Shown: positions 6,520-62,630 of the stretch, piece by piece
Layout of the letters: every line of letters starts with the position of its first letter
Numbering within the stretch: the first letter of the stretch is position 1
Assembly (NCBI RefSeq): GCF_004010195.1
Contig: NC_057718.1
Coordinates: 102,222,079 to 102,286,078, forward strand
Origin: Chiloscyllium plagiosum
Taxonomy: Eukaryota
Direction: 5' to 3'
DNA length: 64,000 nt
Position numbers and translations under genes: made by a program
Notes under the pieces: model-generated
What the model was told of the DNA's origin: nothing
The model's database searches: none
The model's input: only the letters and a program-made list of their open reading frames with translations

Positions 6520-6610
6520 TGAAGCTGAAGACACTGGAGGGACTCAGCAGAACAACGGAGAGAGAAACAGAGCGAATGTTTCAAGTCCAGTGACCCTTCT
6601 TCAGAATTGC
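6520..6610 (-). mobile_element. Hammerhead-headed mini-element (family 3), decayed
   Basis: Minus strand reads ttCTGAAGA-A-GGGTC-actg-GACTT-GAAA-CATT then ctctgtttctctctcc, homologous to the copies at 30881 and 45170-45210. Confidence 0.7.
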
Positions 6611-7010
6611 CAACAGGCGCAAGAATGGGGCTGTGTTATTACTGTTGCATGATGCTTCACTCCTCATTAATTGTTACGTAAGCAACATCAAAGGAAAACT
6701 GATGCTCAGAGAAGCAGCTTTCTGTAAATGCTCACAAAAGAACCAAGGACTGTTATTGAATAGATGCTCAGGCTTTCCAAGAAAACCCACTTTCTTAATG
6801 TCACAGTGCAAAACAAATCTTTATTCGACAGCATAAAGATGGGGAACATTGCAATTCTTCCTCATTATGAATCATGCTGATTTATTCATTACTTCAATAT
6901 TTCTGCAATGCCATTAAGATGGAACAGAGCAAAGTGGCTACAAAGAAACCTGAGGGTGAATGAAATGTCAAGTCTTGGATGACAGATTTTGAAGAAAAGC
7001 AAGATAGATT

Positions 7011-8052: not shown

Positions 8053-9029
8053 GTCTCACACCAAGTAGGTAGTATATGAGTTCGTCAGGCATCAGTCTAA
8101 TTTGGGGAAAAGTTCATTTGTGTGAGAACTGCTACTTTCACTTGCACTTGTTTTATTAAAGCTAAGTTTAAACCATAATCCTTTGTTTGTCTCAAACAGT
8201 AAGAGCAGTTGGGTAAATGCAGCTTATGAGTAATAAACTGATCAAAGTGTCTGTATAGAAATTTCACTGGCAACAGGTCCATCTCCAGAAACAGGATAAA
8301 AACAGTCATCGTGAAGAGCACATTTCATCTTCTTGCCCTGTCTCTCAGCTCTCGCTAATCATTGCTCAACCACATTGCTTCTCCAGGATTATCCCCACGG
8401 ATATGGGAATTAGAATGAAGACAGGGAAATAAGAACAGGAACCAGCCAAACAGCCCATCAAGCCTGCTGAACCATTCAAACAGACACTGGCTGATTATCT
8501 CCCTTGAAGCAGTTTGTTGTATTGACAGTGGGTTTATGAAAATGCTTGGGAAGAACAGTGCACACAATTCCCTTGATTGTCTAAGAAATAATTCCATGGG
8601 ATCTTTTATATCTATCAGATAAAACAGACAGGGCTTTGTTTGACAGTTCATCTGAAAACATGCACAGTGAGGTGTAGGAACAGCATTTAGCCCATTGCAT
8701 TCCATGAGATCATTGCTGATCTGATAATCCTCAACACCACTTCCCTGCCTCTTTCCCATAATCCTTGATTCCCTTCCCGATTAAAAATTTGTATCCAATT
8801 CTTGAATGTATTTAATGACCCAGCCTCTACTGCGTTCTGTGGTAAAGAACTCCACAGCTTCATGTGTACAAGACTATGGGCAGGTGCTGGGAAGTGGGAT
8901 TTGAACAGTTCAGTGGTTGCTTTTGACAAGCACAGATAGAATGGGCTGAAGGGCCTTTTTCCATGCTGTAGGTTGGTGTGTGACTCTACACCATACACTC
9001 CTACACTCCCCATTCTTGCTATCAGTGGT

Positions 9030-14960: not shown

Positions 14961-16723
14961 TCCTTTTACCGTAAGTGTAGAGTCATCAGTAGGCCAGGAA
15001 AGGTGATGGTGTTAGATTCCCTTCCCTAATGGTTCTTACAACAATCCAGTTGTTTTAAGGACACCACAACTGGCAACAGTTTCTCAGTACAGAGTCATTC
15101 AATCAATTAAATTCAATTTACAATAGCTGCCATGATGGGGTTTATACTCATGTTGGTGGACCATTAGTTCAGATGTTTAAACAATCAAAAATATACCCAA
15201 ACTACAGTCTATGCGAGCTGGTGATATCAAGCATGTTGTAACAGTGACATCTGCACTCAAAGGCAAGAGGCTGTTGTGATGAATGTTCATGGTATCACAT
15301 TGTTATTTGGGAACTTAGGTTGCAAAGTGAAAGATAAATGGTCATTAGTTTTCATTTTGACGTTTTTATAGAAGGTAACAGTCATTTTGAACAGCGACCT
15401 TTTTCAAAGTCTTTTTTATTTTCATTTTCCAAATGAATAGCGAGCCACTTTGGGAGATAATTGCTCGGGCTTTTGCAGTTCCAGGGTTTGCAACACAAAG
15501 GGAGACAAAGAGAAGGCAGTCTGAGGGATATTCACTCAGGTAGGAACAACTTAGTTCAGAGGGAAGAGCTCTTCAACAGCAGTGCTGCTGTTAACAACAC
15601 TCCAGGGATAGATCGCTCAGGTAAGGAAGACTACTCAGAGGAAAGCCAGAAACGGACGGCTGTGGATGTGTCAGAGAGAAAAATCTTCTCAAAAGACAGA
15701 TGAAGACATAAGTTTAAGGAGCCCATGTTCAATCATTAAGTGAGTTAACAGTTTGTTTGAGGTCTCATTGATTAAAGAAAATAGCATCAAGTGACAGTAA
15801 AAATTTGCTGAAAACTTACTGATTGCAGCTGTGCCAGCTGTAAAAGGCGATTTAGTACAGAGACTAGGAATCCCCTCATTGAGCTTTGGATAACTGTAGG
15901 GTTGATGTGAATGCAAAATAATCAAGTCCTTCTGATTTATGCAATTCTTTCTTTTTAAAACAGTTACTATGGTGTCGTGTTGCTTTTCTTTTACTTCTAT
16001 GCAACAACCTTTTTTCTTCTTTTGTTTAAAGTACATAGGCAGCCTCTTGATCATTGGCTGATCACTGTGGCAAACAACAATAAGACATAAACAAATGGTC
16101 TATCAAGCCAGGTTTAACTCTGGGATCTGACTTGTCCTGTACTACTATTAGCTGGGATTAAAACGCAGTGAGTAACGGAGGGAATAGTGTGTACTCGAGA
16201 GAGAGATGGACTCACAGAAAACAATATTATGTACACTAGTGTAAAAAACAGGCTTCAGAAACCTACTACAGTCAAATAGCAGTCACTGTAAGGTAAAGGG
16301 AAAGGATTACAGGCTATATTCTACCACAGACTCAAGGATGGCCATTGCAGAAAACAACCATCCATATCAAGAACACAAACATCCTGCAAGCTAACTCTGC
16401 ACTTTCAGAACAATTATTAACATTATTATTAATGTCTTTGAGTCAGTCGATATATAGTTTGGGGCTGGCAATAAAACTTGATTAGTGGATGACAGGAAGT
16501 TTTACTGTAAATAGCAATGTTTCCAATCTGCTGAAATGCATGACAAATTGCTGGCAGGCACCTGGAGTAATTTGAGGTAATGAGTAAATAAAATTAGTCA
16601 AAAGAACAAAGGGAACATGAAAGAAAGATGCTGACAGGGAATATTTCACCTGTTTTAGAGGACTCCAATTCCATAAATGTCATAATAAAAATTGAAATAA
16701 CTGCAGATGTTGTAAATCAGATA

Positions 16724-16875
16724 CAAAAACAGAAACTGCTGGAAAACCTCAGCAGATCTGGCAGCGTCTGTGAAGAGAAATCAGAGTTCAGAGGAAGGGC
16801 CCAAAACGTTAACTCTGATTTTTCTCCACAAATGCTGCCAGACCTGCTGAGCTTTTCCAGCAAGGTTTATTTTTG
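16724..16875. mobile_element. Fold-back (inverted) mini-element with a hammerhead-core remnant in the loop
   Basis: Arms 16724-16788 and 16811-16875 are imperfect reverse complements; loop is cagaggaagggcccaaaacgtt. Confidence 0.8.
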
Positions 16876-20639: not shown

Positions 20640-21107
20640 TAGTTTAACAACGTGGTAGCCCCCCAGCTCGGTTAAAACCCCTTATTTTCCACACGGTTTC
20701 ATTTCAATGTTCTCTCCCTTGTTCCACTTTATTTTTGCAGCCGGGTGCGAAATAGACCGAAGTGGTTCTCGTTGGGGGCAAAAATCCTTTCCGCAGGAAT
20801 CTCCTGGAAGTCGATGAGTCACATCCCCCGCAGTAAGAGAAAGGAACAGCTCTCAGAGCAATGAGGCGCGTGTTGCTGCCGTGGGCTCGCTCAGTCAACT
20901 CTCCACCACCAGTTTGCAAAGAAGCAACAAGCACAGGTACCCTCTCCAGAGCACTCCAACTCTTCTCCAGATCCCAGGTTTGCTGCAGGACCTGCTGATA
21001 ACCTCCTGGTGTCTCCAGGTTGTCCCAGGCTTTGGTGCCAGGGCTGTCTATCAGCAGGCTGACCTTCCATATGTTGTGGGGGGTCTGGGCTTGTTCTGCC
21101 CGGGAGG
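20640..21107 (+). promoter_or_regulatory. CpG-enriched, repeat-free region just upstream of the GPCR start (candidate promoter or 5' UTR)
   Basis: Visible CpG enrichment against the background; strong acceptor-like tract ttctctcccttgttccactttatttttgcag ending at 20740; TSS cannot be determined. Confidence 0.4.
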
Positions 21108-21532
21108 ATGGGGGAAGCCTGTACTGAAGCCTGGCCGGAGCTGAGGAACCTGAGCTGCAGCCTCTTGGACTATGACACCGCCCGCTTGGACAGCCAGGAC
21201 TTCATGACGGACCGGAGCTTCGAGGCGGCTCGGACCGTGGTCGGGGTGACCCTGGTCGGGATCATGTTGGTGTGTGGGCTCGGCAACTTGCTGTTCATTG
21301 TGAGCCTGGTTCGCTGTAGGCAGCGCCGCAGCCTGACCAGCCTCCTGCTCGCTAACCTGGCCGTCTCGGACATGCTGGTGGCTGTGCTCTGCTGCCCCTT
21401 CGAGATGGATTACTATGTGGTCAAGCAACTGTCCTGGGAGCACGGCCACGCTCTGTGTGCCTCGGTCAACTACCTCCGCACCGCTTCCCTGTCTGTCTCC
21501 ACTAACGCGCTGCTAGCCATCGCCATCGACCG
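21108..21532 (+). CDS. prokr: Prokineticin receptor-like GPCR (PROKR1/2 family), coding exon 1 (N-terminus, TM1-TM3)
   Basis: ATG in strong Kozak context (aggATGG); [68 protein letters not shown] match PROKR; donor CG|GTAAGG at 21532/21533. Confidence 0.95.
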
Positions 21533-21557
21533 GTAAGGGAGGGGACTTGGGTTAACT

Positions 21558-23200
21558 ATGGACACACACATAGACACACACACACACACACACAGAGATA
21601 CACACATAGACACACAGAGATACACCCACACTCACACAGACACACGGATACACGCAGAGACACACAAGGGCACAGAGACACATATAGACATACAGAGACA
21701 CACGGAGATACACACACACAGAGACACGGACACACAGATACATGCAGAGACACACAAGGGCACAGAGACACATATAGACATACAGAGACACACGGAGATA
21801 CACACACACAGAGACACGGACACACAGATACATGCAGAGACACACAAGGGCACAGAGACACATATAGACATACAGAGACACACGGAGATACACACACACA
21901 GAGACACGGACACACAGATACATGCAGAGACACACAAGGGCACAGAGACACATATAGACATACAGAGACACACGGAGATACACACACACAGAGACACGGA
22001 CACACAGATACATGCAGAGACACACAAGGGCACAGAGACACATATAGACATACAGAGACACACGGAGATACACACACACAGAGACACGGACACACAGATA
22101 CATGCAGAGACACACAAGGGCACAGAGACACATATAGACATACAGAGACACACGGAGATACACACACACAGAGACACGGACACACAGATACATGCAGAGA
22201 CACACAAGGGCACAGAGACAATTATAGACATACAGAGACACTCAGAGATACACGCACTCACACAGAGATACAGACACACATAGATACACGCAGAGACACA
22301 CAAGGACACAGAGACACACATAGGCATACAGAGACACACACAAAGCATGACACAAAAGACAGGCACAGAGCCAGAGAAAAAAGGATAGGGACAGAGAGAT
22401 CCAGAGGCAGAGAGAGTCAAAGAAAACAAAGAGAGAGAGACAGACAGACAGAGAGGAAGAGAGGGACATGTACAGAGACGGACAGAGTCAGAGAAAGACT
22501 GAGAGAGATACAGACATTAATAGACAGAGAGAGAGAGAGAGACACACACACAAAGTGAGTCAGAGAAAGAGAGAGAGATAGAAAGAGTCAGAGAGAGACA
22601 AGTTCAGATAGAGTCTTACATTTTTATTCAGTTAAGGAATCAAGGCAAGAAAAGGGCGGAAAGGTGGGAAAGGGAGTAAAACATTTTCAAATCAGTTGTG
22701 ATTTCATTGAATTACAGACCTGATGGGCTGAATGGCCTACTACTAAGCTTTGTGGACAGAGGCAGAGAGAGTGACAGGGAGAGATAGGACGGACAGAGAG
22801 AGCACATAGTGAGTGATAGAGTTGGAAGGAAAGAGAAATATCAGAGACTGAGACAGACAATGAGTGTGAGAGAGACAGACAGACAGACCGAGACAGTGAG
22901 AGAGAAAGATGGAGACAAAGAGAGACAGAAAGAGACACAGGAAGAGTGTACCAGGGGTACTTCTTTAATCAGTAAGGGAATGGGGAAATGGCAGGAAAAT
23001 GGAATTGAGGATTATCAGATCAGCCATGACTTCATTGAATGGCAGAGCAGACTTGATGGGCCGAATGGCTCACTTCTGCTCCTATGCTTTATGGGCAGAG
23101 ACAGTGAGAGAAGACAGAGGGAAAGATAAAGACAAAAGAAGTCAGAGGCAGGGAGAGAGAGAGAGAGACAGAAAGTCAGGGACAGAGAAAAAGAAAGTTA
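21558..23200. repeat. CA/GA-rich low-complexity intronic tract containing a perfect 90-bp tandem array (21654-22220)
   Basis: About 6.3 identical 90-bp units; 30-aa periodicity in the ORF track; flanked by degenerate CA and GA repeats. Confidence 0.95.
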
Positions 23201-26944: not shown

Positions 26945-27188
26945 CAGGAATGGACATTGTGGATTGGCAGAAGTTGTAAAGTGATGGATGTTGTACGGGA
27001 CTGAATGTTGCACTGTGATAGATGTTGCATGTTGATGAATTTTGTATAGTGATCAGGAGTGGATGCGGATGGATGTTGCATGCTGTTGGATGTTGTACAA
27101 GGGTCAGAGTGTATAGTGGTCGGAATGTACATTGGTTGGAGTGTACAGGGGTGGATGTTGTACAGTGCTGTGTATTGTGCAGTGCTGG
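26945..27188. repeat. Degenerate about 17-bp minisatellite, block 2, next to the exon 2 acceptor
   Basis: Units such as gatggatgttgcatgct / gttggatgttgtacaag / ggtggatgttgtacagt. Confidence 0.7.
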
Positions 27189-27217
27189 GTTCTCATTATT
27201 ATTTCCTTTTGCCACAG

Positions 27218-27911
27218 ATATCTAGCCATTGTCCATCCCCTGAAGCCCAGGATGAAGTACCAGACTGCCTATGTGCTGATCGGCCTGGTGTGGGGTGCCT
27301 CTCTGCTCATGGCCATCCCCTCTGCTTACTTCACCACTGAGGTCACCATCCCACACTCCAACTCGCAGAACAAGATCTTCTGTGGGCAGATCTGGCCAAG
27401 AGAGCAGCAGGTCTCTTACAAATCCTACTCCCTCTTCATCTTCGTCCTACAGTTCCTGGGTCCCTCGCTGAGCATGGGTCTCTGCTACGCCCACATCTCC
27501 CGAGAGCTCTGGTTTAAGAGTGTGCCTGGTTTCCAAACCGAGCAGATACGGAGGAGGCTGAAGTGTAGGAGGAAGACTGTGTTGGTGCTCATGGGCATAC
27601 TGACTATTTACATCCTCTGCTGGGCTCCCTATTATACCTTCACCATAATTCGCGATTTCCACCCCACACTGGTTTTGAAGCTGAAACACTACATTACGGT
27701 CTTCTACGTTGTCGAATGCATTGCCATGAGCAACAGTATGATCAACACCATATGTTTTGTCACCGTCAAGAGCAGCACCATGAAATACGTCAAGAAAATG
27801 ATTCTCATAAGGTTTAGATCCACTTCTGGTGGCAGTAGCAGATCAGGCCAAGATCTGAGAACGACTGGGATGCCGGGGTCAGATGAAATCGAGCAAATGC
27901 AACTCCAGTAG
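27218..27911 (+). CDS. prokr: Prokineticin receptor-like GPCR, coding exon 2 (TM4-TM7, C-tail)
   Basis: Acceptor atttccttttgccacag|A completes R of DRY (CG+A); [75 protein letters not shown]; stop TAG at 27909-27911; spliced CDS is 1119 nt = 372 aa. Confidence 0.96.
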
Positions 27912-30880: not shown

Positions 30881-30975
30881 AGTTCTGAGGAAGGGTCACT
30901 CGACATGAAACGTGAACTCTGATTTCTCTCCACAGATGCTGCCAGACCTGCTGAGCTTTTCCAGCAATTTCTGCT
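30881..30975 (+). mobile_element. Hammerhead-headed mini-element (family 3)
   Basis: agtt-CTGAGGA-A-GGGTC-actc-GACAT-GAAA-CGTG-aact then ctctccacagatgctgccagacctgctgagc. Confidence 0.75.
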
Positions 30976-31898: not shown

Positions 31899-31993
31899 CA
31901 GATTAGCGTGGTGCTGGAAAAGCACAGCAGGTCAGGCAGCATCCAAGGAGCAGGAAACTCGACGTTTTGGGCAAAAACCCTTCATCAGGAATC
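31899..31993 (-). mobile_element. 95-bp hammerhead-headed mini-element (family 2) with 12-bp TSD
   Basis: ACTGAATCATTC at 31887-31898 and 31994-32005; minus strand starts gattcCTGATGA-A-GGG..CCC-AAAA-CGTC. Confidence 0.85.
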
Positions 31994-33150: not shown

Positions 33151-33630
33151 GGTGAATTTGTACTCGCAGAATTACATTTTATTTTGCTCAAAAACTGCAA
33201 GAATTCATGTAAGATTCTGTAAATCCCTTTTTTAGATTAGAATCAGCCTGAACATTGGGGCACAGACAGCCTCACACAGGGCATCTCACACCTTCAATGC
33301 ATTATCGGAGCTGATATGGCACCTATTGTTACAGTTCACTTGAGAATGTAACTTTAAAAAAGTTCTGAGATTTACATATGATAGAACTGAAGCCAACATG
33401 GTCATTCTAAAACATGAGAGACTTAACAAACAATCCAGGTCTTTTTCAATATATAATTTCAGTTACATCAGACTGCAAACTTTTGCTATAAATCTGTGTC
33501 TTATAATGTTGAGGAAGGACCAGCGCTCCAAAAGCTAGTGCATCCAAATAAACCTGTTGAACTATAACCTGGTGTTGTGCGATTTTTAGCTTTGTCCATC
33601 CCAGTCCAACACTGGCACCTCCAAATCATG
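33151..33630 (+). repeat. Left pseudo-LTR of the PLE
   Basis: Collinear with 37425-37921; ends at the ATG (33628) that appears to open the PLE ORF. Confidence 0.9.
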
Positions 33631-34241
33631 ACCACCATCGACACCACTAGTTAGTGGCGCCTGCTCACAGTGGAGAGGGTCTGCAAGAAGATCACAGATT
33701 TTGACACAGAAATGCAAGAAAGATCCCAAAAGGATTACGGATCACGAACCCACTCAAGTTGACCCATAACACAGATTACGTGGAGAGACGTTGCCATGGC
33801 AAACTCCTCAATCATTTCATGCACCAACTCTAGAGCAGGTGCCACAACCTAGAAATTAAGATGGAGTCCACACTCCCAGGCTGCATTCAGGATATGGCAG
33901 TACAGTTACGGGACATTGCCAAACAGGCAAGGTGACAAAACTACACTACGTACATGCATACCAAGGACAAGAAACTGGAGCAAATTGGCATCACCACCAG
34001 CAGTAGTCAAGCCTGCCCTGGTACCACAATGGAAAACTATATCACCGCGGGAAGTCGATTGCAAACTTATCGGACCACACCCTTCAACCAGAAGAGATTG
34101 AAGTTCTTAGCAGGGGTCTCAATTTCTGCCCCACGACCAAAATGGACATGGGTCTTGCAGCAGACACGGAGGAATTCATCAGACGAATGAGACTCTGGGA
34201 ATTCTTTCAAGAATGCGAGCAGTGATCCCAATGAGCTCACC

Positions 34242-34470
<229 letters not shown>

Positions 34471-34666
34471 TGCCAATTTCATCAGCTGCACCCACAAGGT
34501 AGAGCAAAACATCACCAGATCATAACACAACACCATCCATGCTCTCAAAACCAATCACAACATTGTCATCGAACCAGCAGATAAAGGAGGAGCCATCGTC
34601 ATTCAGAATAGAATAGATTATTGCAAGGAAATGTACGGACAACTGAACAACCAGGAACACTACAGG

Positions 34667-35350
34667 AGTGCAGGTTCATAGCTCCTTGAAAGTGGAGTCG
34701 CAGGTAGATAGGATAGTGAAGAAGGCGTTTGGTATTTTTTTTTTATTGGTCAGAGTATTGAGTACAGGAGTTGGGAGGTCATGTTGTGGCTGTACAGGAC
34801 GTTGGTTAGGCCTCTGTTGGAATACTGTGTGCAATTCAGGTCTCTTTCCTATCAGAAAGATGTTGTGAAACTTGAAAGGGTTCAGAAAAGATTTACAAGG
34901 ATGTTGCCAGGGTTGGAGGATTTGAGCTATAGGGAGAAGCTGAACAGGCTGAGGTTGTTTTCCCTGGAGCATCGGAGGCTGAGGGGTGACCTTATAGAGG
35001 TTTACAAAATTATGAGGGGCATGGATAGGATAAATAGACAAAGTCTTTTCCCTGCTTTCGGGGAGTCCAGAACTAGAGGGCATAGGTTTAGGGTGAGAGG
35101 GGAAAGATATAAAAGGGACCTAGTGGGCAACTTTTTCACGCAGAGGGTGGTACGTGTATGGAATGTGTTGCCGGAGGAAGTGGTGGAGGCTGGTACAACT
35201 GCAACATTTAAGAGGCATCTGGATGGGTATATGAATAGGAAAGGTTTGGAGAGATATGGGCCAGGTGCTGGCAGGTGGGACTAGATTGGACCGGCATGGA
35301 CGAGTTGGACCAAAGGGTCTGTTTCTGTGCTGTCCATCTCTATGACTATA
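34667..35350 (+). mobile_element. CR1 (HER1-like) LINE 3' fragment nested in the PLE RT region
   Basis: LYRTLVRPLLEYCVQF..LERVQKRFTRMLPG..RGDLIEVYKIMRG..FFTQRVV..WN.LP; ends in ctatgactata. Confidence 0.95.
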
Positions 35351-36217
35351 ACTACCTACCCATCTGACCAAAGAGCACACCCGTGAACTAAACACATTGA
35401 TCAGGACTTAGGATCTAGTCCTTCAGAGTTCCCTATGCGCTCTCATCCCATGTACTTCTTACGTAGGTGACTTCTACTGCCTTCTGAAGATACACAAAGC
35501 TAATGCACCAGGATATCCCATCGTATCAGGCATTGGGACACTGAGAGAACCTCTCTGGCTATGTTAAAGATATCTTGAAACCCATTGGACAGGAGACCCC
35601 CAGCTTCTGTCACAACACTACGGATTTCTTACAGAAACTCAGCACCCACGGACCAGTCAAACCGGGAACCTTCCTTATCACAATGGATGTTTCAGCACTC
35701 TACACCAGCATCCCCCACAATGACGGCATCACGGCAACAGCCTCAGTACTCAACACCAATCTCCAGACACCATCCTACAACTCATCCGCTTTATCCTTGA
35801 TCACAACGTCTTCAGCTTTGACAACCAGTTCTTCATCCTGACACATGGAACAACCATGGGGACCAAATTTACACCCCAATATGCCAACATTTTCATGTAC
35901 AAGTTCAAACAAGACTTCTGTACGCAGGAACTCCAACCAACACTATACACCAGGTATATTGACATTTTCTTCGTCTGGACCCATGACGAGGAGTCACTGA
36001 AACAGCTGCACAGTGATATTAACGAGTTTCTTCCCACCATTAAACTCACCATGGACTATTATCTATTATCTGTCTCATTCTTGGACGCATGCATCTCCAT
36101 CAAGGATGGACACCGCAGTACTTCACTCGACTGCAAACCCACGGATAGCCTCACGATGCTACACTTCTCCAGTTTCCACCTGAAACATATTAAAATAGCC
36201 ATCTCCTATGGACAGGC

Positions 36218-36635
36218 AAAAGTGAGGACTGCAGATGCTGGAAACCAGCTTTTGCCTGAAACGTCGATTTTCTTGCTTCTTGGATGCTGCCTGACGTGGT
36301 GTGCTTTTCCAACTCCACTCTGATCTAATCTCCTTATCACAATGGACGTTTCAGCACTCTACACCAGCATCCCCCACAATGACGGCATCGCGGCAACAGC
36401 CTCAGTACTCAACACCAACAACTGCCAATCTCCAGACACCATCCTACAACTCATCCGCTTTATCCTTGATCACAACGTCTTCACCTTTGACAACCAGTTC
36501 TTCATCCTGAAGAAGGGCTTATGCCCGAAACATCGATTCTTGTGTTCCCTGGATGCTGCCTGACCTGCTGCGCTTTTCCAGCAACACATTTTCAGCTCTG
36601 ATCTCCAGCATCTGCAGACCTCACTTTCTCCTCTA
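36218..36635. mobile_element. Composite insertion: mini-element + duplicated PLE RT segment + hammerhead-headed mini-element
   Basis: ATCTCCTATGGACA at 36201-36214 and 36636-36649; 36330-36510 copies 35671-35841. Confidence 0.8.
36504..36537 (+). ncRNA. Minimal hammerhead ribozyme motif (family 2), stem III mismatch
   Basis: atc-CTGAAGA-A-GGGC-ttat-GCCC-GAAA-CATC-gat. Confidence 0.65.
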
Positions 36636-37424
36636 ATCTCCTATGGACAAGCCCAACACATACAGAGACGAGGAGGAATGGGATGGGCACATGGAAGTAC
36701 TCAAGAATGCCCTCATAAGAGCAGGGTATAATGCTTAACTCATCGACCTCCAGTTCTGACGTGCCACAGTGAGAAATCGTAATGAGCTCCTCAGGAGACA
36801 GACACGAGCTGCAACTGACAGGGTACCCTTCATTGTTCAGTATTTCCCAGAAGCCGAAAAACCACGCCATGTTCTTTGCAGCCTGCAACACGTTATCAAT
36901 GAGGATGAGCACCTCGCCAAGACCTTCCCCATGTCTCCACTTCTCACCTTTAAACAATCACCAAACCTCAAACAGCTCATTGTTCGCAGCAAACTGCCCG
37001 GCTTTCAGGACAGCACCGTACAACCCTGTCACGGCAGACGCTCGAAGACATGTCAGAGTGTCGACATGGACACCTCCATTACAAGTGGGGACACCTCCCA
37101 CCATGTACGCGGCAGGTACTCATGTGACTCGGCCAACGTTGTCTATCTCTATCTACAGGTGACCCCACTGCACTACACATACATACACACACAAACTCCT
37201 ACAGGCACAAATACACTCCTACAGATCCATACACTCACGCAGACCCTCTCTCATACTCGAGATCTCTCTCTTACGGTCACACATACACTCCCACAATCAC
37301 ATGCACACACACACCCTCTCACAGATTTATAGCCCTTTACACTCACATGCATACAGATACACACATCCTCTCACAGACACTCATACCTCTTCACACACAC
37401 GTGCACACACATATAAGTTTGTGA

Positions 37425-37921
37425 GGTGAATTTGAACTTGCTGAATTATAGTTTATTTTGCTCCAAAACTGTATGAGTCTATGTAAGATTCTGCAAATCC
37501 CTTTTTTGGATTAGAATCAGTCTGAACATAGGGGCACAGATAGCCTCACACAGGGCACCTCACACCTTCAATGCATTATCGGAGCCGACATGGCACCAAT
37601 TGTAACAGTTCACTTGAGAATATAACTTTAAAAAAGTTCTGGGATTTACATATGATAGATCTGAAACCAACATTATCATTCTAAAGGATGAGAGATTTAG
37701 CAAATAATCCTGGTCTTTTTAATATATGATTTCAGTTACATCACACTGTAAATGTTTGCTATAAATTCCGTGTCTTACAATGCTATACTGCACAACCACC
37801 TGAAGAAGGAGCAGTGCTCTGAAAGCAAGTGCTTCCAGAAAAACCTGTTGGACTATAAGCTGATGTTATGTGACTTTTAACTTTGTACACCCCAGTCCAA
37901 CATCGGCATCTCCAAATTATG
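37425..37921 (+). repeat. Right pseudo-LTR of the PLE, carrying a hammerhead motif at 37797-37831
   Basis: cac-CTGAAGA-A-GGAGC-agt-GCTCT-GAAA-GCAA-gtg (U16.1 mutated); collinear with the left pLTR. Confidence 0.9.
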
Positions 37922-43721: not shown

Positions 43722-46322
43722 AGTGTAATAATGAGCCCGACATTTTTTTCCTATATATCTTGATTGAGGGATAAATATTGACCAGGACAGGTGAGAGAAT
43801 GCTATTGTACCTCTTTAAAATAGTGCTAAACAATCCTTTAGATCCATTTAAGAAATCAGCTGGGGCCTCACCCAGAGGACAGGGTCTTTGACAGGGCAGC
43901 GCTCCCTTTGTATGCACTGGAGTGGTCAGCACAGATTTTTGTGTATGGTGTTTAGAACTTTCAGATTTACGCACTTGTCACTGTCCTGAATATGTATTGG
44001 CGGTCTTTTCTTTTCAACCAGAAATGCACATTAGAAATCTGATCATTTGCTTTTTCCAGTTAATCAAGCACAATGCATTTCAAAATATCCGACCTGTTCT
44101 TCCAACTGACAAAGCTCTGAACCAAGAAAGCTGAAGGGTCCCTGTGAAATGTAGTTCGAGGTTAAATTGCTGAATTGGTTCACAGCTGCACTTGTACCTC
44201 GACACATTTCATCAGCACTCTGAGTGCCAAAAAGTCTTATGTCATGAGTTCATCTCCATTAAGAGCTGAAACGCGGAGCCAAAAATTAAATTCACAACCA
44301 GTAGAGGATATTGATGAAAGAAATGCCTTATATAACTCACAATAAAGAATCCACTTTCAATTCATTTCATAAACTATTGCCCTAAACCTAAGTGATAATG
44401 TCGCTTTGCACATGGACCCATGCCAACATGGTATATTTTCCATTCTTTACCTGTATGCAGGTTCAGGGTAGTTAGCCGTGTCTCTATCTCTTGGCAGCAT
44501 CCAACTATTCATATTACAAATCATGTGTGGGGGACACCCATTAGAACAAAAATGAGGTTCATCTGCATTTTCTTTTTTTATGTCATAGTCAAACACCAAC
44601 ACAAATGGTTAGCATCAAAAATGGATAATGGCCTGTTAGGCATGCTCCCAAATAACAGTCAGTGTCCATGGAACTGAGATGAGAAGGCAAGATATATACT
44701 TGGCGAGGAATGAAATTAAACACCAGGTTTCCAGGCTATACACGGGTTGGTGATTCCAATCTGTGGACTGCTCTCAGCCCACTGAGAGTGCAGTGAACAA
44801 ACTGCACATACTCTCACCCAAAGCTAATGGGAACGGCAACATGGCCAAAATGTTTAGTTGACCTGCTATAGGAAGGTGAGAGTCTGCAGGAAAGATTTAC
44901 CAGGATGTTGCTAGGGATGGAGGGTCTGAGTGATAAAAATTGGCTGGATAGGCTGGGACCTTTTTCACAGGAGTGTAGGAGGTTGAGGGATGACCTGATA
45001 GAGCTTTATAAATTCATGAGGGACATAGATAAGGCACATATGCTGACACACACACATACACACACACACACAAAGACACACACACACACAATGCTGGAGA
45101 CCTGAAACAAACAAAACAGAAATTGCTGCAGAAACTCAGCAAGTCTGACAGTATCAATGCAGAGAGAATAGAGTTAACGTTTGAAGTCCAGTTACCCTTC
45201 TTCAGACCATTTAGCTCATCATGAGTTCTATTCCCTAGCATCAATCTCCTGCATTTTCCCCCCAAACCTTCATACACCACTTCTATCCAAATAACCACCC
45301 AATGTCTCCCCTGAATGCCTCAACTGATCTGGCCTCCACCACATTTCCAGCCAGTGCATTCACACACCCTGACTACTCGCTGTGAGAAAAAGGTTTCTCT
45401 TATTTCATTTGCATAGCACCTTAATTCATTTGATTCACTAACGTTCTTCAGGAAAAACAGTATGCTGGTCTACATGTGACTCAAGGGTCTGATTCTTAAC
45501 TGCTGTATGACACAGTCCTTAGAGGCAAGGACCAAAGGCAACTGCTGGTCTTTGCAATGATAGCCACAACATATGGAAGAATAACGTATGTTTGATTAAT
45601 TACCTGGAATAGAATATATGCATGTTTTTTCTGTGGGAAAATAAGGTTCCTTGGAGTGTAAGGGAGTGTGCCATGATATGAAGAAGGGGAACTCTGAGTA
45701 ACAGCCCTCAAGACAAGCTGTTTGGGGCCATTGTAATAGCAATGTGAAAAGTGACAAAAGGAAAACACAGAACATTCTGAATGGGAGAAGAGAAATATAA
45801 AGAAGGAAAGTTACTAAAAGTGACTCTTGTTTAAGTATTCCCTGTTCCTCCCTGAATTTTCAGGATACTTGGCTTGATGGGGTGGCAAATTGCTATAGAA
45901 ACAGGTTGTAAGGCAATGTCCTTTGAGGAAGGAAAATTGCCACCACCTCCTGATTCACAAGATAGTAACCCCACCTGAATGTTCTTTGAAGTGATCCACA
46001 AACCCTTAGGTTGTGCCCATTGCCACCTTCTTGGGTTACAAAGCCATATGTGACCCTATCACTTACAGCAAAGAAACTTCAGCAAAGTCAGCTACCCCAA
46101 ATAAATAAGCCCAGAGCAGTTATAACATTGCAAGAGATCAGAACTGTACAGAGGACTCCAAGTGCAGTCACACGAATGTACAGTTGTAGCAAGACTTCCC
46201 AACTCTGATCCTTCATCCCCTCTTGCAATAAAGGTCAACACTCTATTTGCCTGCCTAACTACTTGCTATACTTTTGTTATTCACTCATAGGACGTGGGTG
46301 TTACTTGCTGGGCCAGCATCTA

Positions 46323-46481: not shown

Positions 46482-49339
46482 TATTGCCCACCTCTAGTAG
46501 TCCCCTTGAGCTGCCTTCTTGAACCCCTGCAGTTCATGCGATTAGGGATATGAGGGAGAGTATTCCAGGATTCCAACCCAACAGCACTGAAGGAACGGCA
46601 ATTTATTTCCAAAAGCCCAGGATGGTGAGTGACTTAGAGGGGTAATTGAAGGGAGGGGTGTTCCCCTGTATCTGCTGCCCTCGTCCTTCTAGGTATGGGG
46701 GCCATTTCCTGATCTGGAATGAGGCCGTGTATACAATGGCCTGGAATTCTATCATAACTGGAAAGTTAAAGCAGTTTTTATAGCTTTACTATTTCATTGG
46801 GTATGGGAGTCATTGGGCAAGACCAGTATTTGTTGCCCATTTCTAACTGCCTTGAACTGAACGATTTACTCGGCTAATTCAGCAGGCAGTTAAGAGTCAA
46901 CCCCATTGCTGTGGGTCTGGAATCACATGTAGGCCAAACCAGGTAAGGATGGCAGGTTCCTTCCCTAAAGGACATTAATGAACCGGATAGGTTTTGCAGA
47001 ACAATTGTCAATGGTTGCATGGTTACTACTACACAGGCGTTGCTTGGATTCCAGATATATTTATTGAGTTCAGGTTTCACCATCTGCCCATGCCCCCACA
47101 GCATTGAGTTGGGCTTTTGGGTTTAGTGATCCCCGGTGAGATTGACACAACACCACCACCTCCCAAAGTGTGCCTGAAATTTCCTGATAATCTGGAGGAA
47201 CATTAAAATTTGGTGTAAAACAAGCAGTGATAATCTGGGATTGGGATAAATGGAAAAGCTACATCATATTCTTTTGCAAAAATAATACTTGGAGCAAGCA
47301 AATAATCATAGCAAGCAAAACATGCTTAAGAAACGCAATTATAGAAGTTTTTCCATTATTAATGGAATTCAGTGTGATATCTTGATAATATTGAGAGCAC
47401 AAGTGTCCGGGGAGGAGAATTGTATTTCTAATTTGTAGAAATGTCAACCTGAAACATCAAATCCTGCTGCTCTCAAAAGGTTAGGTGTAAATTCAGTTCC
47501 ATTCAGGGAATCTACATTCTATTCTTGTGCCATCATTGAAGCCCATAGACAGATTATAGCCACAAGCAGACAACAGATCATTCCACTGTTCCACACTTCT
47601 CTCATTGGGGTATTCAGCCATGGAACATTTCTCTAATGTACAGTAGAGCGTGTAAATGCTGTAGAGCTACATAAAAGGCAAAAATTGTTTGCTTCAAACC
47701 ATTAAATCTCTGATTTATCTTCTGCACATGAAATGTTAGATAAGCTGATAATTTTGGGAGTCTTTCTGCTCACGACATGCTGTCAAACCTTTGATTTGTC
47801 TCCATCTGTGACACAGAAGTGTAATTAACGTCTGTCTGTGCATAATGAAACTGGAATGTTCTCACCAATTAATTTTTTGGACTTTAGTGATTAGGAGGGA
47901 AACATTGTCCTTGTTAAAAAAATGATTTTTGTGGAATGTGGGCATCATTGGCTAGGCCAGCATTTATTACCCTTCCAAAATTATCCTTGAGAGCAGTTAG
48001 GACACACTGCTATGGATCTGGAAGCTAGATCAGGTAAGGACTGCAGATTTCCTTCCATAAAGGATATTAATGAACTGGGATGAGTTCCTACAACAAACAA
48101 TGATAGCTGTGATGCTCACCATCACTTGGATTATAGATTTTTAACATCAAACTTAAAATCACCCCAGCTCAGTTAGTAGAACTTGAAACCATGTCCATCC
48201 CTGATGTCCCCTTCTCTCGCTCCCCCAACCTTCTCCCCCCCTTACTGCTCCTCCTCCTCCCGACCATCTTCCCCCTGCCCCTCCCCTTTTCCCTCTCCCT
48301 CTCTGGGCCCTGTCCAAGGACATTAACATGGGTTTCTGAACCTACAACTACTGCACCACCATCTTCCCATTATCATAACTAGTGTTCATCTCCACATTTT
48401 CTTTTCAATCTATTAACTGAATTTAAATTCCACCAGCTCCCCAGTGGACTTTACAGTTGAGGAACTTGGCTTACAATAATACAAACAGAAAGAGCTGGAG
48501 AAACTGCAGGTCTGGCAGGGCAGAGAGAAACAAAGTTAACGTTCCAAGTCTGGCGACTCTTCTCCAGAACGGAAGGGAGCCAGAAAACTGATATTTTTAA
48601 TGCTGTTGACAAATGAGGAGGAGGAGTGAGTGGGACAGATGCTGAGGATGTTCAGAGTCTTAGAGTCCTGGAGTTTTACAGCATGGAATGAGGGCCTTCA
48701 ACTCATTGTGTCTATACCGGTCAGCTAGTCCCTACCTACACTCGTCCCATTTATGGCCCATAGCCTTGTTTGTTAATGTACTTCCAGTGATCACCTAAAT
48801 ATTTCTGGAATGCTGAGATGGTTCTTACCTGCACCATCTCTTTCTGGTAGTGAGTTCCAGATGCCCACCACAGAATTGTTTCAGGTAAGCGTTCATCAGT
48901 CAACTGAAAATTTCTCACAATACAAAAGCAGTATGTACAAGGTTAGATAAGGCAATTGGCATCCCAGTTGGACCTGAAGTAGAAAATCCAGTCCCCGTTC
49001 TGCCATTCAATACGATAGTGGTTGGTCGGTTTGTGTATGAAGACCCACGCACTTAAATCGAACCCAGGTCCCTGGCGCTGAGAGGCAGCAGTGCTAACCA
49101 CTGAGCAACCATGCTGTGTGGTGTAAGCATGTTCAAGCTAAACCTTATCAATAGTCATTCCCCATAAGCTGGGATTTGAAATGATATTTAAGTCAGGACA
49201 GCATCTGCAATCAATACTTTGACTTAACACAATGATCATCAATCATTATGGAAAACATTCTGGACAAATCTTTTACCCATCATGCATTAGGACTTCCATC
49301 AGGAGTGGCATGTGGCCAGGTTACACTGGGCTGGCCATT

Positions 49340-54900: not shown

Positions 54901-55638
54901 GGGCCAGATGGACCCTGTGGAGAATCTTCAATTACAAGGCATGGGTCCTGTTGCAAATAGAGATCCTTCTTGCATTATCCCAGACATCATCACATATTTC
55001 AGAAGAGATTACAATATCCAGCTCCCTCTCCCATACCTTACAAAGCTGTTCAGCCTCATCCAAGGGATCCTCTCCCAGTCGATGATAAGCGTTGCTAATA
55101 GATAATGTACCCTCAGCACTCAACACCCTCTTTTCCATGGCGGACCTATAAGGATCAGTTAGAAGTGTGGTCTCTTTTCGTATGAAATTTCTAATTTGAA
55201 AAAAAACCAAAATAGGTCACTACTGGGCAATTCATATTTCCTAACCAACTGGTCAAAGGACATTAATATGGCCCCTTCAAATAAATCACCCAGGCAAAGC
55301 ACACTCCTAGCTGCCCACAGTTTAAACCCAGAATCCACAATCATTTGCTGAAAACCCGGCATAACTACTATGGGTGTCAAAAATGATGTTTTGGCAATAT
55401 TGCCCCCACCCTGACGCATTTCCCTCCACGCCTTGACAGTATTGATGACTACTGGGCTATGGCACTGTTCCCATTTTGTCTAAGAACAGCAGGCTAATGA
55501 GGGGGCATCTTGCCTGAGATGCTCCGATGTCCAATAATAGTGATCATGATTTGGAGATGCCGGTGTTGGACTGGGGTGTACAAAGTTAAAAAATCACACC
55601 ACACCAGGTTATAGTCCAACAGGTTTAATTGGAAGCAC

Positions 55639-56090
55639 AGTGGCACAGTGGTTAGCACTGCTGCCTCACAGCGCCTGAGACCTGGGTTCAATTCCCGCCT
55701 CAGGTGACTGACTGTGTGGAGTTTGCACATTCTCCCCGTGTCCGCGTGGGTTTCCTCCGGGTGCTCCGGTTTCCTCCCACAGTCCAAAGATGTGCAGGTC
55801 AGGTTCCTGATGAAGGGCTTTTGCCCGAAACGTCGATTTTGCCTGTCCTCGGATGCTGCCTGAATTGCTGTGCTCTTCCAGCACCACTGATCCAGAATCT
55901 GGTTTCCAGCATCTGCAGTCATTGTTTTTACCTAGGTGAATTGGCCATGCTAAATTGTCCGTAGTGTTAGGTGAAGGGGAAAATATAGGGGTATGGGTGG
56001 GTTGCGCTTCGGCGGGTCGGTGTGGACTTGTTGGGCCGTAGGGCCTGTTTCCACACTGTAAGTAATCTAATCTAATCTAAGCTAAAAAAA
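55639..56090 (+). mobile_element. HE1-type V-SINE nested in the pLTR, itself interrupted at 55805-55933
   Basis: HE1 head and core to 55804, resuming at 55934 (AGGT duplicated), tail (ctaat)n plus A run. Confidence 0.9.
55805..55837 (+). ncRNA. Minimal hammerhead ribozyme motif (family 2), intact core, heading a 129-bp mini-element (55805-55933)
   Basis: tc-CTGATGA-A-GGGC-tttt-GCCC-GAAA-CGTC-ga; palindromic ACGU stem III; predicted cleavage after C55834. Confidence 0.8.
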
Positions 56091-56121
56091 AGCTTTCGGA
56101 GCAACGCTCCTTCATCAGGTG
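56091..56121 (-). ncRNA. Minimal hammerhead ribozyme motif (family 1), 3' stem I displaced by the SINE insertion
   Basis: Minus strand: cac-CTGATGA-A-GGAGC-gtt-GCTCC-GAAA-GCT. Confidence 0.75.
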
Positions 56122-56430
56122 ATTGTGGAGGGCTCGATCGTAACACAGAATTTATAGCAAAAATTTGCAGTGTGATGTAACTGAAATAATACATTGAAAA
56201 ATTGATTGTCTGTTAAGCCTTTCATCTATTAGAATACAGTGATAGTTTCACTTCTTTCATGTGTAAATCACAAAACCTTTTTTTTAAAAGTTGCATTCTC
56301 AGGTTAGCTGTTAACAATGGTGATAGCTAGACAATATGTTGAAGGTGTTAGCCCCCTGTGTTCTCTGTCTATGACCTGATGTTTAGATTGATTCTAATCT
56401 AAAAAGTGAGATAACAGAGCCCTCCACTAT

Positions 56431-56465
56431 CACCTGATGAAGGAGCGTCGCTCCGAAAACTAGTG
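56431..56465 (+). ncRNA. Minimal hammerhead ribozyme motif (family 1)
   Basis: cac-CTGATGA-A-GGAGC-gtc-GCTCC-GAAA-ACTA-gtg; stem I CAC/GUG; one change in the AGCU palindrome. Confidence 0.78.
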
Positions 56466-59400
56466 TGCTTCCAATTAAACCTGTTGGACAATAACCTGGT
56501 GTTGTGTGATTTTTAACAACAATAGTGAGTTAGGGTTCCCCCGGGCCCAGTCATTCACATAAGATAGCAATGAGCTTAACTGATAGTTGTTGATATCTGG
56601 GAGGCCCACTCCTCCCAGTCTGTAAGGGAACTGCAATTTAGTCAGTTTAATTAGGGGCCGCTTGCGATACCAAATGAAAGAACTGAACCAGCCATTCAGT
56701 CTTCTAAATATTTGCTTAGCAAAAAGCAGAGGTAGCATTCATATGGGACACAACAGGTGGGGCAGAATGTTCATTTAAACAAGGGCTATCCGACCTACCC
56801 AAGAGATCGAATGCGCCTCCCATCTATGAAGGTCCTGTCGAATAAATGGACAAAATTGGTTTTAGACAGCTGATTGAAAACAGGGGCAATAAATAGACCA
56901 AAGTAGAGAAAGCCCTCCTGCGTCCATCGAAAGGGGAACCGAGATCCGCCCTCAGGATCAGGCACTCTCGGGAGACCACCCATGGGCATGGCCTCTGATT
57001 TCATACAGTTGATCTTATAACTCAAGAAGCCTCCAAATGGATTAATGTATTGTATCAGGTGTGACACTGAGACTGTTGGGTTTGATAAGAAGACATGAAA
57101 GTCATCTGTATACATTGTGGTCTTATGTGACTTTGTCCCCATTTCTGGAGCTGTTATATTGGGATCCCTGCATATTGCCTCTGCCAGCAGTTCGATCACC
57201 AATGTGAATAGCAATGCTGATAAGGGACAGCCCTGTCGACTGCCCCTACAAACATTGAAATTGCTTAACCACACACCACTGGTGAGTACCGCAGCAAGAG
57301 GGTTACTATACAAAACCTCCACCAACCTGATGAAGGTCTCTCCCAGGGCAAACCGCTTTAAAGTATAAAAAAGATATGGCCACTCGACCCTGTTAAATGC
57401 CTTTTCCACGTTTAAGGAGATTACCAATCCCTGTACCGATCACTGTTGACATACTTAGATCGTGTTAAGTAACCTCCTGACATTATCTGACGATCTGCAA
57501 CCTTTTATGAACCCTGTCTGGTCCTCCTTAATGATAGAGGGCAGTACAGTTTCTAGCCTTAATGTTCGCCTCTCTTAGAGATGGAGGGAGGAGGCCACAA
57601 CTATGTCAGTCATTAAACATACTGAGCATCGGCTCTGACAATATATTGATAAATTCCTTCTAGAACGCACTGGGGAGCCCTTCAGGACCCGGTGCCTTTC
57701 CATTCTGGAGCTGCCTCACAGCCTCCTGCAACTCTTGCTCTGACAACGGGGCATTGAGGAGAAACTCCTGTTCAAGGGTCACTCCCGGCAGGTCCAAATT
57801 CTTTAAAAAAAGACTCCATCCCAACCCACCCACCCTCACAGCTTTCAGATCGGTATAGTTCAGAGTAAAATTTCCAAAATGCTGCACTAATCCTTTTAGA
57901 ATCGCAGGTTAAGTTTCCAGTGTACCCTGTGATCAAGGTAATGGCTTTGGGGGAACTCCTTTTCCTGGCAAGGAATGCTAGGTACTTGCCCGGCTTATCC
58001 CCATGCTCAAACAGCTTTTGGTTTGCAAATGTAAGCTCCCTTTTGGCTCTCTGAGCGCATGCAGTTCAGCAAAGACCGAAGCGCTGTGATCCTCTGCAGT
58101 TTAGCCAGTGAGGGCCTGTCAAAATGTGCCTTTTCAGCTACTTTCAGATGTGGCTCGAGCAAGCATTGCTGCTCACCCAGCTAACGCTTCTTACTGGCTG
58201 AATGGGAAATAACAAACCCCCGAGCATAGGCTTTAGCTGTTTCCCAAAGGTTGGATCGGCTACTGGCCGAGCCTGAATTAATATCTAAAAAAGCCCTGAA
58301 CTCAGCAGAAAAGAATTCAATAAACTTGCTTCCTTGAAGATGAAGGGTGAGCCTACCAAAGTATCCTTATTCTTAACCATTAAACATACTGGGGTGTGAT
58401 CGGAAATAGTAATATTGCCAATTGTACATGACATCACTGAGCCCAGATGTGCTGCAGAGGTCAGAAAAAAATCAATCCTGGTATGGTATGTGGGTTCAAA
58501 AAGAACGCAAGTTCCTGCCAGTAGGGTGAAGGTGCAAACATCTACAAATCCCAATTCAGCACACATATCTCCTAATTGTTTAGATTGCAAAGAAGATATC
58601 GGAGGGCCTTTGGGCAATCTGTCCGTTGTAGGGTCTATTAGACAACTGAAATCCCCTCCTTCAATAATATGCTTAGAAGCAAGGTTAACAAGTCTAGAAA
58701 GTGCTTCTGTCAAGAACTTAAGGGGGTGGGCCGGGGGACAGTAAACATTTACGGTCCTGTATGCTTCCCCATCTATCAAAGCTTTAGGGATTACAAATCT
58801 CCCATGTGTGTCTTTAATGCACTCTAATAACTTAAATGGGAGATTCTTTCTAACTAAAATGGCCACCCTTCTATTCCTCATATTGAAAGATGAAAAATAA
58901 ACCTGGTCATACCCATTCTGTTGCAGCTTCAACTGCTCTGCGTCATCCAACTGTGTTTCTTGTAATAAGGCAACATCCACCCTCTCCTTTTTAAGGCTGG
59001 AAAGTACCTTCTTCCTCTTGACTGGCAAATGACTCCCCTTAATATTCCAGGTACACCACTTAAACACATCCATAGCATTATCCTCTATAGCACTATTTAG
59101 ACTCCAGAGAGGAAGAACCCAAACTACAATTCGCTAAGCTTTAATGCAAAAAAATCCACAAAACCCAAAAACTACATTGACTAAAATAACTACAGCCAAC
59201 ATATCTACAAAACTTAAAAAACTATGCACAGCAAAAACGGTAAAACAAAAGTTCGCTGAAGGCACTGATTGGAGGAATTTACCCCCTCCCCCATTCAAAG
59301 GGGGTACCTACACATCCTACAACCCTGCAAACCATCCCAACTGCCCTCTCAACTCCTACCAGCTAGTGTCGCGCCACATACACCGGCAAACCGGTGGGAA

Positions 59401-62059: not shown

Positions 62060-62630
62060 ATAATGTTGCCAGGAATGGAAGGTTTGAGTTATAAAGATAG
62101 GCTGGGACATTTTCACTGGAGTGTAGGAGGTTGAAGGGTGACCGTTTTGAGGTTTTAAAATCATGAGGGGCATGGACAAGCAAGGGTCTTTTCCTTAAGG
62201 TGGGGGAGTTCAAAACTAGAAGGCACATTTTAAGGTGAGAGGGGAAAGATTTAAAAAGGATGAGGGGCAACTTTTTACACAGAGGTGGCTCGTGTGTAGA
62301 AAGAACTGCTAGAGGAAGGAGTGGATGCAGGTACAGTTACAATGTTTACAAGACATTTGGATAAATTTATGAATAGGCAAGGCTTGAATGGATGAAGCTG
62401 AAAATATGTTGCTCATTGAAGGGCTCATGCCCGAAACATCGATTCTCCTGCTCCTTGGATGCTGCCTGACCTGCTGCGCTTTTCCTGCAACACATTTTCA
62501 GCTCTGATCTCCAGCATCTGCAGTCCTCACTTTCTCCTTGAATGGATGAAAGCCAAACACAGACAAGTGGGACTAACTTGATTTGGGAACATGGTCAACA
62601 TGGACTAGTTGGGCCATGCTGAAAGACTGT
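62060..62630 (+). mobile_element. CR1 3' fragment carrying a nested mini-element (62397-62536, 14-bp TSD)
   Basis: CR1 ORF2 C-terminus similarity; CTTGAATGGATGAA at 62383-62396 and 62537-62550; insert contains GAAGGGC-tcat-GCCC-GAAA-CATC. Confidence 0.85.

Follow-up and report, generated by a model that had tools for sequence, protein, structure and literature searches.

The window, a 64-kb stretch of shark DNA, carries remnants of Penelope-like elements (PLEs) at several places, the most complex of which is a nest of insertions around 56 kb (Table 1). The SINE that splits the minus-strand copy of the head-to-head family 1 insertion is presumably HE1-like. The family 2a stub inside this SINE is flanked by AGG on both sides (55801-55803 and 55934-55936), and empty SINE sites without the stub were found at 32566+ and 19583+. 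Loop II of the stub (55819-55822) reads TTTT, which in the host SINE would likely halt Pol III before a complete ribozyme is made. In the plus-strand family 1 copy G15.2 is changed to A at 56459 and an ATTAAA is located at 56474-56479. Pieces of an L1/Tx1-type LINE with endonuclease and RT frames adjoin the nest on the minus strand at 56795-59133.

Upstream of the nest lies a decayed full-length family 1 element. Its two pLTRs are identical in 417 of 498 columns, and it is interrupted by a microsatellite, a LINE piece and an inverted pair of family 2 copies. Further features of the window are two exons of a seven-transmembrane receptor (21063-21536 + and 27117-27911 +) with the DRY motif spanning the intron, which resembles a prokineticin receptor, and a 19-bp minisatellite and a CA-rich repeat with a period of 90 bp at 6920-8100 and 21490-22280.

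Table 1. Elements, stubs and hammerhead motifs in the window. Positions count from the first letter of the window; +1 denotes the putative RNA start.
Feature	Position	Strand	Remarks
Family 1 insertion, head-to-head	55545-56517		whole, with 11-bp target duplication
Left target-site duplication of this insertion	55533-55543	+	10 of 11 letters as in 56518-56528
Right target-site duplication of this insertion	56518-56528	+	
Tail of minus-strand family 1 copy	55545-55639	-	stem I 3' remnant; ATTAAA; ends at ORF ATG
tRNA-type SINE	55640-56090	+	splits the minus-strand family 1 hammerhead, with U16.1 on one side and the stem I 3' strand on the other
Family 2a solo pLTR stub, 130 bp	55804-55933	+	inside the SINE; tail ends at +127
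Hammerhead of this stub	C3 55807, G12 55827	+	predicted cut after C55834
Minus-strand family 1 pLTR piece	56091-56405	-	TATAAA 56156-56151; putative +1 A 56126; C3 56118; broken by the SINE
Plus-strand family 1 copy	56417-56517	+	head-to-head with the 56091-56405 piece; putative +1 A 56426; C3 56434
Decayed full-length family 1 PLE	33151-37921	+	two pLTRs, RT, Cys linker, endonuclease start
5' pLTR of this PLE	33151-33630	+	hammerhead remnant at 33510
ORF of this PLE	from ATG 33629	+	broken pieces
RT of this PLE	35724-36209	+	RVT_1, E = 3e-4
Cys linker and endonuclease (GIY-YIG) start of this PLE	36760-37150	+	
3' pLTR of this PLE	37425-37921	+	TATAAA 37760; C3 37800
Family 2 copies within the family 1 RT region	36217-36633		36217-36254 -, 36248-36319 +, 36504-36633 + (C3 36507)
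Family 2a stub	31908-31991	-	starts at putative +1 A with G in front; G12>A
Family 2b stub	62417-62525	+	without 5' core
Family 3 stub	30881-30967	+	starts at AGUU; G17
Family 3 stub pair, head-to-head	16696-16863		damaged core
Family 3 stub	6560-6606	-	broken palindrome and stem I
Family 3 stub, decayed	45114-45206	-	
Family 3-type stub, decayed	48500-48570 (approximate ends)	-	
Family 1 stub, decayed	4719-4835	-	

Hammerhead motifs in the window

A strict descriptor of the motif (CUGANGA, one base, a stem II of at least 4 bp, GAAA) matched the window six times, while 200 dinucleotide shuffles of the window gave a mean of 0.02 matches. The C3 positions of the matches are 36507+, 37800+, 55807+, 56434+, 56118- and 6604-. 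The first-pass annotation had claimed a dozen-odd motif sites. A recognisable copy was present at all 14 places listed, but the motif is complete at only one of them, with C3 at 55807+. For this copy the predicted position of the cut, after C55834, had been numbered correctly. Unlike the string that had been quoted for family 1, the sequence at 56434+ reads GAAAACUA and contains a broken palindrome.

The damage differs from site to site. At 56118- the SINE splits the motif after U16.1 and the 3' strand of stem I is gone, 37800+ lacks U16.1, and both 36507+ and 6604- have ACAU at the palindrome. G12 is missing at 31988-, 33510+, 4833-, 45204- and 16789+, the hammerhead at 30885+ carries G17, the core is missing at 62414+ and two changes are found in the core at 48566-. 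An Rfam scan returned six matches at E<=5, none of them to a hammerhead family. Neither a match to a curated model nor the 6-bp stem I with loop-loop contact of a canonical type I hammerhead was found; stem I has 3-4 bp.

Families, abundance and fold

Exact matches in the whole genome numbered 70,075 for family 2, 12,463 for family 1 and 524 for family 3, and the reversed control patterns had none. A sample of 10-kb stretches, 120 in all and set at even intervals, comprised 1,170,258 bases other than N and held 297 tail copies; the motif was fully intact in 59 of its 118 descriptor matches. A rough extrapolation to the genome yields about 900,000 tails and about 180,000 intact motifs. The proposal of three separate families stood for family 1, which is a distinct lineage with an RT identity of 34% over 121 amino acids, but families 2 and 3 have a common downstream tail. 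Additional families in the genome were designated F4a, F4b and F5. The minimal hammerheads (min-HHRs) of F4a and F4b (L192:9875-9930 +; three copies at L235; L178, L190, L221 and L292) have an extra U and a longer stem II. Their stem I is GCA/UGC or UCA/UGA, and their downstream sequence differs from that of families 1 to 3.

The stems had been said to vary between families yet to stay paired, and matched pair changes in stem I, stem II and the palindrome bear this out. Pair 2.1-1.1 is C-G in families 1 and 2, U-A in family 3 and A-U in family 4, so that even the short stem I covaries between families, and pair 15.2-16.2 is G-C in family 1 and C-G in the other families. The matched changes imply that the master lineages kept the hammerhead fold.

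In the core, CUGANGA and GAAA flank a paired stem II. An extra base between positions 9 and 10.1 was present in 338 of 348 descriptor matches and was A in 318, as determined by a script that tried the extra base first. The commonest 10.1-11.1 pair is G-C in F1, F2 and F4a, while family 3 has G-U via CpG decay. Stem III is a loop-less palindrome with ACGU in 175 and AGCU in 66 of the 348 matches, the remainder being mostly CpG-decayed, and the NUH cleavage triplets GUC, CUA and GUU occur. Core, stem II, palindrome and location in pLTRs all agree with the initial assignment to the minimal type I hammerheads of PLEs. The extra A is indeed present, but comparing it to the tolerance of a viroid hammerhead falls short, as it is a common trait of PLE min-HHRs in the account of PMC4209133. 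We conclude that the motifs are real minimal type I hammerhead sequences of a kind already described in PLE pLTRs.

Relation to endonuclease-bearing Penelope-like elements

Thirty loci were picked by a PLE RT peptide alone, and in 19 of them a family 2a motif lies on the same strand about 1.2-1.4 kb downstream. Family 2a has a readable RT, a CX4CxxC linker that conforms to the CX2-5CxxC linker of Neptune/Nematis, and GIY-YIG. The order of RT followed by a C-terminal GIY-YIG domain with CxxC is that of endonuclease-bearing (EN+) PLEs. Profile searches returned RVT_1 plus weak GIY-YIG matches, and homologues carry PF00078 and PF01541. GIY-YIG pieces lie upstream of families 2a and 3, family 3 being represented by an endonuclease piece only. 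In the decayed family 1 copy of the window one cysteine of the linker is replaced. Direct pLTRs, inverted 5'-truncated copies and the optional 30-40-bp tail were found as well. Judged by this sequence context, the motifs are assigned to the pLTRs of several endonuclease-bearing PLE families.

Among the 120 matches listed, the nearest named proteins belong to sharks, rays and skates (55-89%) and to marine invertebrates (43-49%); named reference PLE proteins were not among them. No intact autonomous ORF was found in 18 RT-picked 10-kb stretches, all of which have N runs. The ray and skate models P0006, P0007 and P0080, which bear the names of host genes (isoforms of DIPK1C, CHID1 and NMRK1), contain this PLE RT, which suggests exonised or mis-annotated insertions.

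Beginnings and ends of the copies

Because copies were detected by the sequence downstream of the cut site, finding them was independent of the ribozyme. Ends were counted in 287 of the 297 copies, those away from a gap or edge. The 5' ends of 110 copies fell within about 9-10 alignment positions at the front of the core and those of another 50 in the following 10 positions inside the core. Just 10 copies started within the 7-position interval at the cut; 41 copies reached more than 100 nt upstream. The stop rate per base was 0.07-0.09 at the core front, 0.0055 at the cut and 0.002-0.004 upstream. The 5' ends were spread over about 20 nt (about -13 to +11) and not confined to a single base. 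A head-to-head partner was found in 114 of the 287 copies. The 3' ends form two clusters, one near +82 to +97 and the other near +118 to +128 counted from C3, with a spacing of about 35-40 nt; the two internal RT starts of the anole element PAc would lead one to expect this. Most genomic copies are stubs of 90-130 bp.

The 5' ends did not pile up where the ribozyme would cut, neither in the 287 sampled copies nor with a genome-wide pattern for family 2b. A or G in front of the cut product was seen in 502 family 2b copies, some of which are mere point changes. The corresponding figure for starts at +1 was about 8,000 (86 of 100 matches listed, applied to 9,327). With a pattern stringency that is not identical, cut-site starts of family 2b are about 16-fold rarer than +1 starts. 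About 8 of 100 family 2b matches listed have the 5' core joined to the cut product with stems II and III deleted at a GA microhomology, possibly by jumps of the RT across the hairpin.

Promoter-like signals and an extra G

Of 99 family 1 copies, 32 have TATAAA at -40/-38 from C3. In family 3 it was seen at -33 from C3 in 2 copies, the TATA of this family being represented by 2-4 copies. The distance between TATAAA and an initiator-like A is 29-32 nt in families 1 and 3. TATAAA is absent from family 2, which has TTTATCT or TTATCT at the same distance. In families 2 and 3 stem I begins with the initiator-like A.

An extra G was tallied by hand in copies whose base before the initiator A differs from the C of the element, with an expectation for G of 26%. 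In family 1 starts at +1 carried the extra G in 66 of 100 matches listed, compared with 26 of 100 one base downstream. The values for family 2b were 52 and 59 of 100 matches listed at +1 and 18 of 100 one base downstream; family 3 had 45 of 100 matches listed at +1. When long copies and partner-templated junctions were subtracted, the hand count was 26 of 39 for family 1 and 36 of 57 for family 2b. A script applied to the collected loci yielded 24 of 40 at the initiator A and 13 of 51 for comparison (Fisher p = 0.0012), a pooled count that leaves out family 2a with its 10 copies at +1. With a pattern allowing one mismatch the scripted result, 29 of 95 vs 17 of 70, was not significant because it took in long copies of family 2a, in which the element itself has T, as well as long copies in which C had changed to T.

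A clear G signal was absent from family 2a, with 18 G, 14 A and 68 C per 100 matches listed and 2 G in 8 copies by script. The junction bases also reflect microhomology with the inverted partner, as seen in the 60 T per 100 matches listed for family 1 one base downstream. Thus part of the G excess may be templated. Among the matches listed for family 3, 23 start with an A foreign to the element, and G precedes this A in 16 of them (G-A-AGUU), perhaps by one-base slippage of the start site. RTs are able to add untemplated bases at uncapped ends, too. In L1, the untemplated 5' G has been read as copying of the cap (PMC9341517).

RNA evidence

RNA was examined in run X21, a poly(A) single-cell library of a related species, in which about 2 in 100 raw reads were sampled; a second run, X22, yielded no aligned reads. 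RNA of family 2b was present from both strands. For families 2b and 1 there was no place in these reads where many molecules begin or end, and none at the cut site. Ninety-five family 2b reads stop matching exactly at the putative +1 and have mixed continuations, as would be expected of passenger transcripts of stubs.

In family 1, 959 and 784 reads turn to A-runs at +55 and +59, which places poly(A) addition 25-30 nt past the cut site. In 48 of 65 copies AATAAA or ATTAAA lies at +38 to +41, 11-15 nt before the poly(A) points, and a genomic A-run at these points was found in 0 of 129 copies. Read depth was flat across the cut site, and 246 reads continue through the tail as read-through. Families 2 and 3 are mostly without a poly(A) hexamer. 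We conclude that the family 1 reads reflect a working poly(A) site and uncut RNA; the reads may stem from host transcripts that end at solo copies. Family 1 stubs, with about 190,000 estimated copies (for example L047:1542-1562), may donate poly(A) sites to host transcripts.

A model for the origin of the stubs

Taken together, the 5' pile-up, the extra G, the small number of cut-site starts and the poly(A) site of family 1 suggest that the stubs are run-off cDNAs. We consider it probable that the 90-130-bp stubs arise when the RT, starting from the tail, reaches the 5' end of an uncleaved, likely capped element RNA and runs off, and that they decay neutrally thereafter. In this model a Pol II promoter would start the RNA 4 nt (families 2 and 3) or 8 nt (family 1) before C3, and the hammerhead would make up the first ~35 nt of the transcript. 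The RT of the element would bind this same RNA, nick both target strands and prime in the tail 90-130 nt downstream, as anole Poseidon does in vitro (PMC11167929). Usually it would run off at the cap, and priming on both strands would generate solo stubs and head-to-head pairs. The ribozyme would cut rarely or late, as a dimer via the ACGU/AGCU palindrome and probably with the help of protein. In master elements cleavage would take off the capped 5' end and shorten the RNA at its 3' end. The stubs would be promoterless and would then decay.

Because polyadenylated family 1 RNA stops before the tail, tailed long copies need read-through, a jump between repeats, or a circle. A retroviral LTR has a U3-R-U5 layout with a strong-stop cDNA. 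We entertain, tentatively, the idea that the pLTR works like such an LTR, with promoter, cap site, ribozyme, poly(A) site and priming tail. The ~900,000 stubs would then be strong-stop-like cDNAs that were target-primed in the tail, close to the 5' end of the RNA, and ended at the cap, and long copies would result solely from crossing from the 5' to the 3' repeat, either by a jump that a palindromic dimer of the hammerhead holds together or along a circle formed when the hammerhead cleaves and ligates. If true, this would give the ribozyme a job and account for the regeneration of pLTRs and tails.

Alternatively, the 5' pile-up might be due to stalling or falling off of the RT at a folded or protein-bound hammerhead, or to a splice junction at helix I, with microhomology setting the junction base. 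The spread of the starts, the strong microhomology at the junctions and the missing G signal of family 2a fit such a view. So do the upstream sequences of families 2 and 3, which contain pyrimidine tracts and AG dinucleotides, and the intron of Drosophila virilis Penelope, which according to PMC4209133 ends at helix I. Yet an RT moving 3'-to-5' meets the 3' side of the fold first, where the stop rate is 0.005-0.009; it is high only at the 5' edge. In addition, the G excess is specific to the initiator A and occurs in lineages with 34%-alike RTs and different offsets, and no common upstream exon is seen in the listed flanks. We therefore regard stalling or splicing as rather unlikely.

It is very improbable that the stubs are SINE-like elements or non-LTR retrozymes that borrow enzymes and are amplified from short masters via self-cleavage and circles. 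The extrapolated number of tails would suit such elements, and pLTR-derived tandem retrozymes are described for vertebrates including one chondrichthyan in a preprint (bioRxiv 10.64898/2026.07.22.740005). However, a same-strand relative within 1 kb was present in only 30 of 297 copies, which is not the picture of tandem arrays. The stubs are letter-for-letter ends of RT-bearing elements, have no upstream TATA, and start before the cut site instead of at it.

Decay and predicted folds of individual copies

Excess conservation of the core had been named as a check, and it was not found among the genomic copies: G12 was changed to A in 20 of 142 and G1.1 to A in 20 of 152 (p = 0.87). In family 1 alone G12 was changed in 12 of 57 and G1.1 in 16 of 57 copies. 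Genomic copies decay neutrally, and the catalytic G12 mutates like any CpG.

The copy at 55805-55837 had been singled out as the best candidate for retained activity. We do not share this view. Some 70,000 young copies are just as intact, the copy has neither a promoter nor a same-strand partner nearby, and its predicted fold of lowest energy pairs the core with the cleavage site. The predicted energies were -11.4 kcal/mol for this misfold and -5.2 kcal/mol for the hammerhead fold, and the pairing of core and cleavage site had a frequency of 0.59-0.63 in the predicted ensemble. Family 3 and 2c copies are predicted to fold as hammerheads. Nearest-neighbour energies, which ignore the core, indicated no advantage for a dimer. 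Individual stubs such as 55804-55933 are without a promoter and most likely inert.

That particular copies have been retained as working self-cleaving RNAs of host transcripts is hardly credible: the copy at 55807 does have a complete core, stem II, palindrome and GUC triplet, and RNA of the family occurs on both strands in a related species, but G12 shows neutral CpG decay, the predicted fold is the wrong one, 13 of the 14 window sites are damaged, lone min-HHRs failed to cleave as reported in PMC4209133, and the hammerhead of the anole required protein according to PMC11167929.

Comparison with known systems

The work of Cervera and de la Pena (2014, PMC4209133) already describes this type of motif with its extra base and palindrome, its dependence on dimers, its multiple families and its dispersal as solo copies. 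There, an extra A, G10.1-C11.1 and a palindromic 15.2-16.2 pair are given as features that metazoan PLE min-HHRs have in common. Genomes are described as holding several covarying families each, with about 9,000 copies in the frog and 4,000 in the coelacanth, and min-HHRs are known from the fish elements Xena, Poseidon and Neptune as well as from coelacanth and frog. The shark motifs resemble these in core, extra base, short stem I, the prevalence of single dispersed motifs and opposite-strand pairs. They differ in number, with at least 83,062 exact matches as compared to about 9,000, the largest vertebrate figure in that account. The passages of PMC4209133 used here name no cartilaginous fish and do not address the RNA start, an extra G or a poly(A) site. 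Searches of open-access literature listed no account of PLE hammerheads in sharks, with the proviso that the supplements of PMC4209133 or of the 2026 preprint could hold examples, and likewise none of an extra cap G or a pLTR poly(A) site in PLEs. What this analysis adds is the evidence from the junctions (extra G) and from the RNA ends (poly(A) site) rather than the motif.

The high copy number makes this genome a large natural experiment on PLE copying. Judging by the junction record, the ribozyme is likely where the RNA begins, and copying mostly uses uncut RNA, in agreement with the one in vitro system, the Poseidon element PAc of Anolis carolinensis, for which uncleaved RNA was reported as the main substrate of insertion (Frangieh et al. 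2024, PMC11167929). As in the PAc report, uncleaved RNA would serve as the main template here and no reads end at the cut site; likewise, two internal RT starts would define the tail, and both target strands would be cut and extended. The ORF of PAc starts in stem II, whereas that of shark family 1 starts ~120 nt after C3, and the shark ORFs have the Cys linker of Neptune/Nematis, unlike PAc. The PAc passages used here are silent on the RNA start and on run-off stubs. The exact start, cut, poly(A) and priming positions named here provide a testable handle on PLE copying.

Like the Neptune-type EN+ PLEs of Craig et al. (2021, PMC8557442), the shark elements have a C-terminal GIY-YIG domain with CxxC and a CX2-5CxxC linker, the clade being a candidate by motif. 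They also share partial tandems, inverted 5'-truncated copies and a 30-40-bp tail with the elements described there. PMC8557442 and PMC3846280 explain head-to-head inversions by self-priming on an antisense template and solo pLTRs as products of deletion, in contrast to the priming on both strands and the run-off proposed above. A putative TATA plus Inr as found here is described for a pLTR of the rotifer Adineta (PMC3846280). For Penelope of D. virilis, on the other hand, an internal promoter without TATA and an intron that ends at helix I are reported (PMC2377424, PMC4209133); the pLTR layout of the shark elements is therefore not universal. The role of the hammerhead in PLEs and the regeneration of pLTRs are called open in PMC8557442 and PMC2377424.

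The short palindromic stem III is shared with the small PLE hammerheads of Lunse, Weinberg and Breaker (2017, as cited in PMC6765202), which cleave as dimers. Non-LTR retrozymes as described in bioRxiv 10.64898/2026.07.22.740005 are similar in being derived from pLTRs, in having a type I hammerhead and in including one chondrichthyan; they are tandem arrays by definition, whereas the copies in this genome are mostly solo or head-to-head. The extra G at the RNA start is a likeness to full-length L1 insertions as reported in PMC9341517. Finally, as in an LTR, family 1 would have its promoter first, followed by the RNA start, the poly(A) signal and the priming site. Unlike LTR elements, however, the shark elements would prime from nicked target DNA and not from a tRNA, they have no integrase, and their strand transfer is putative.
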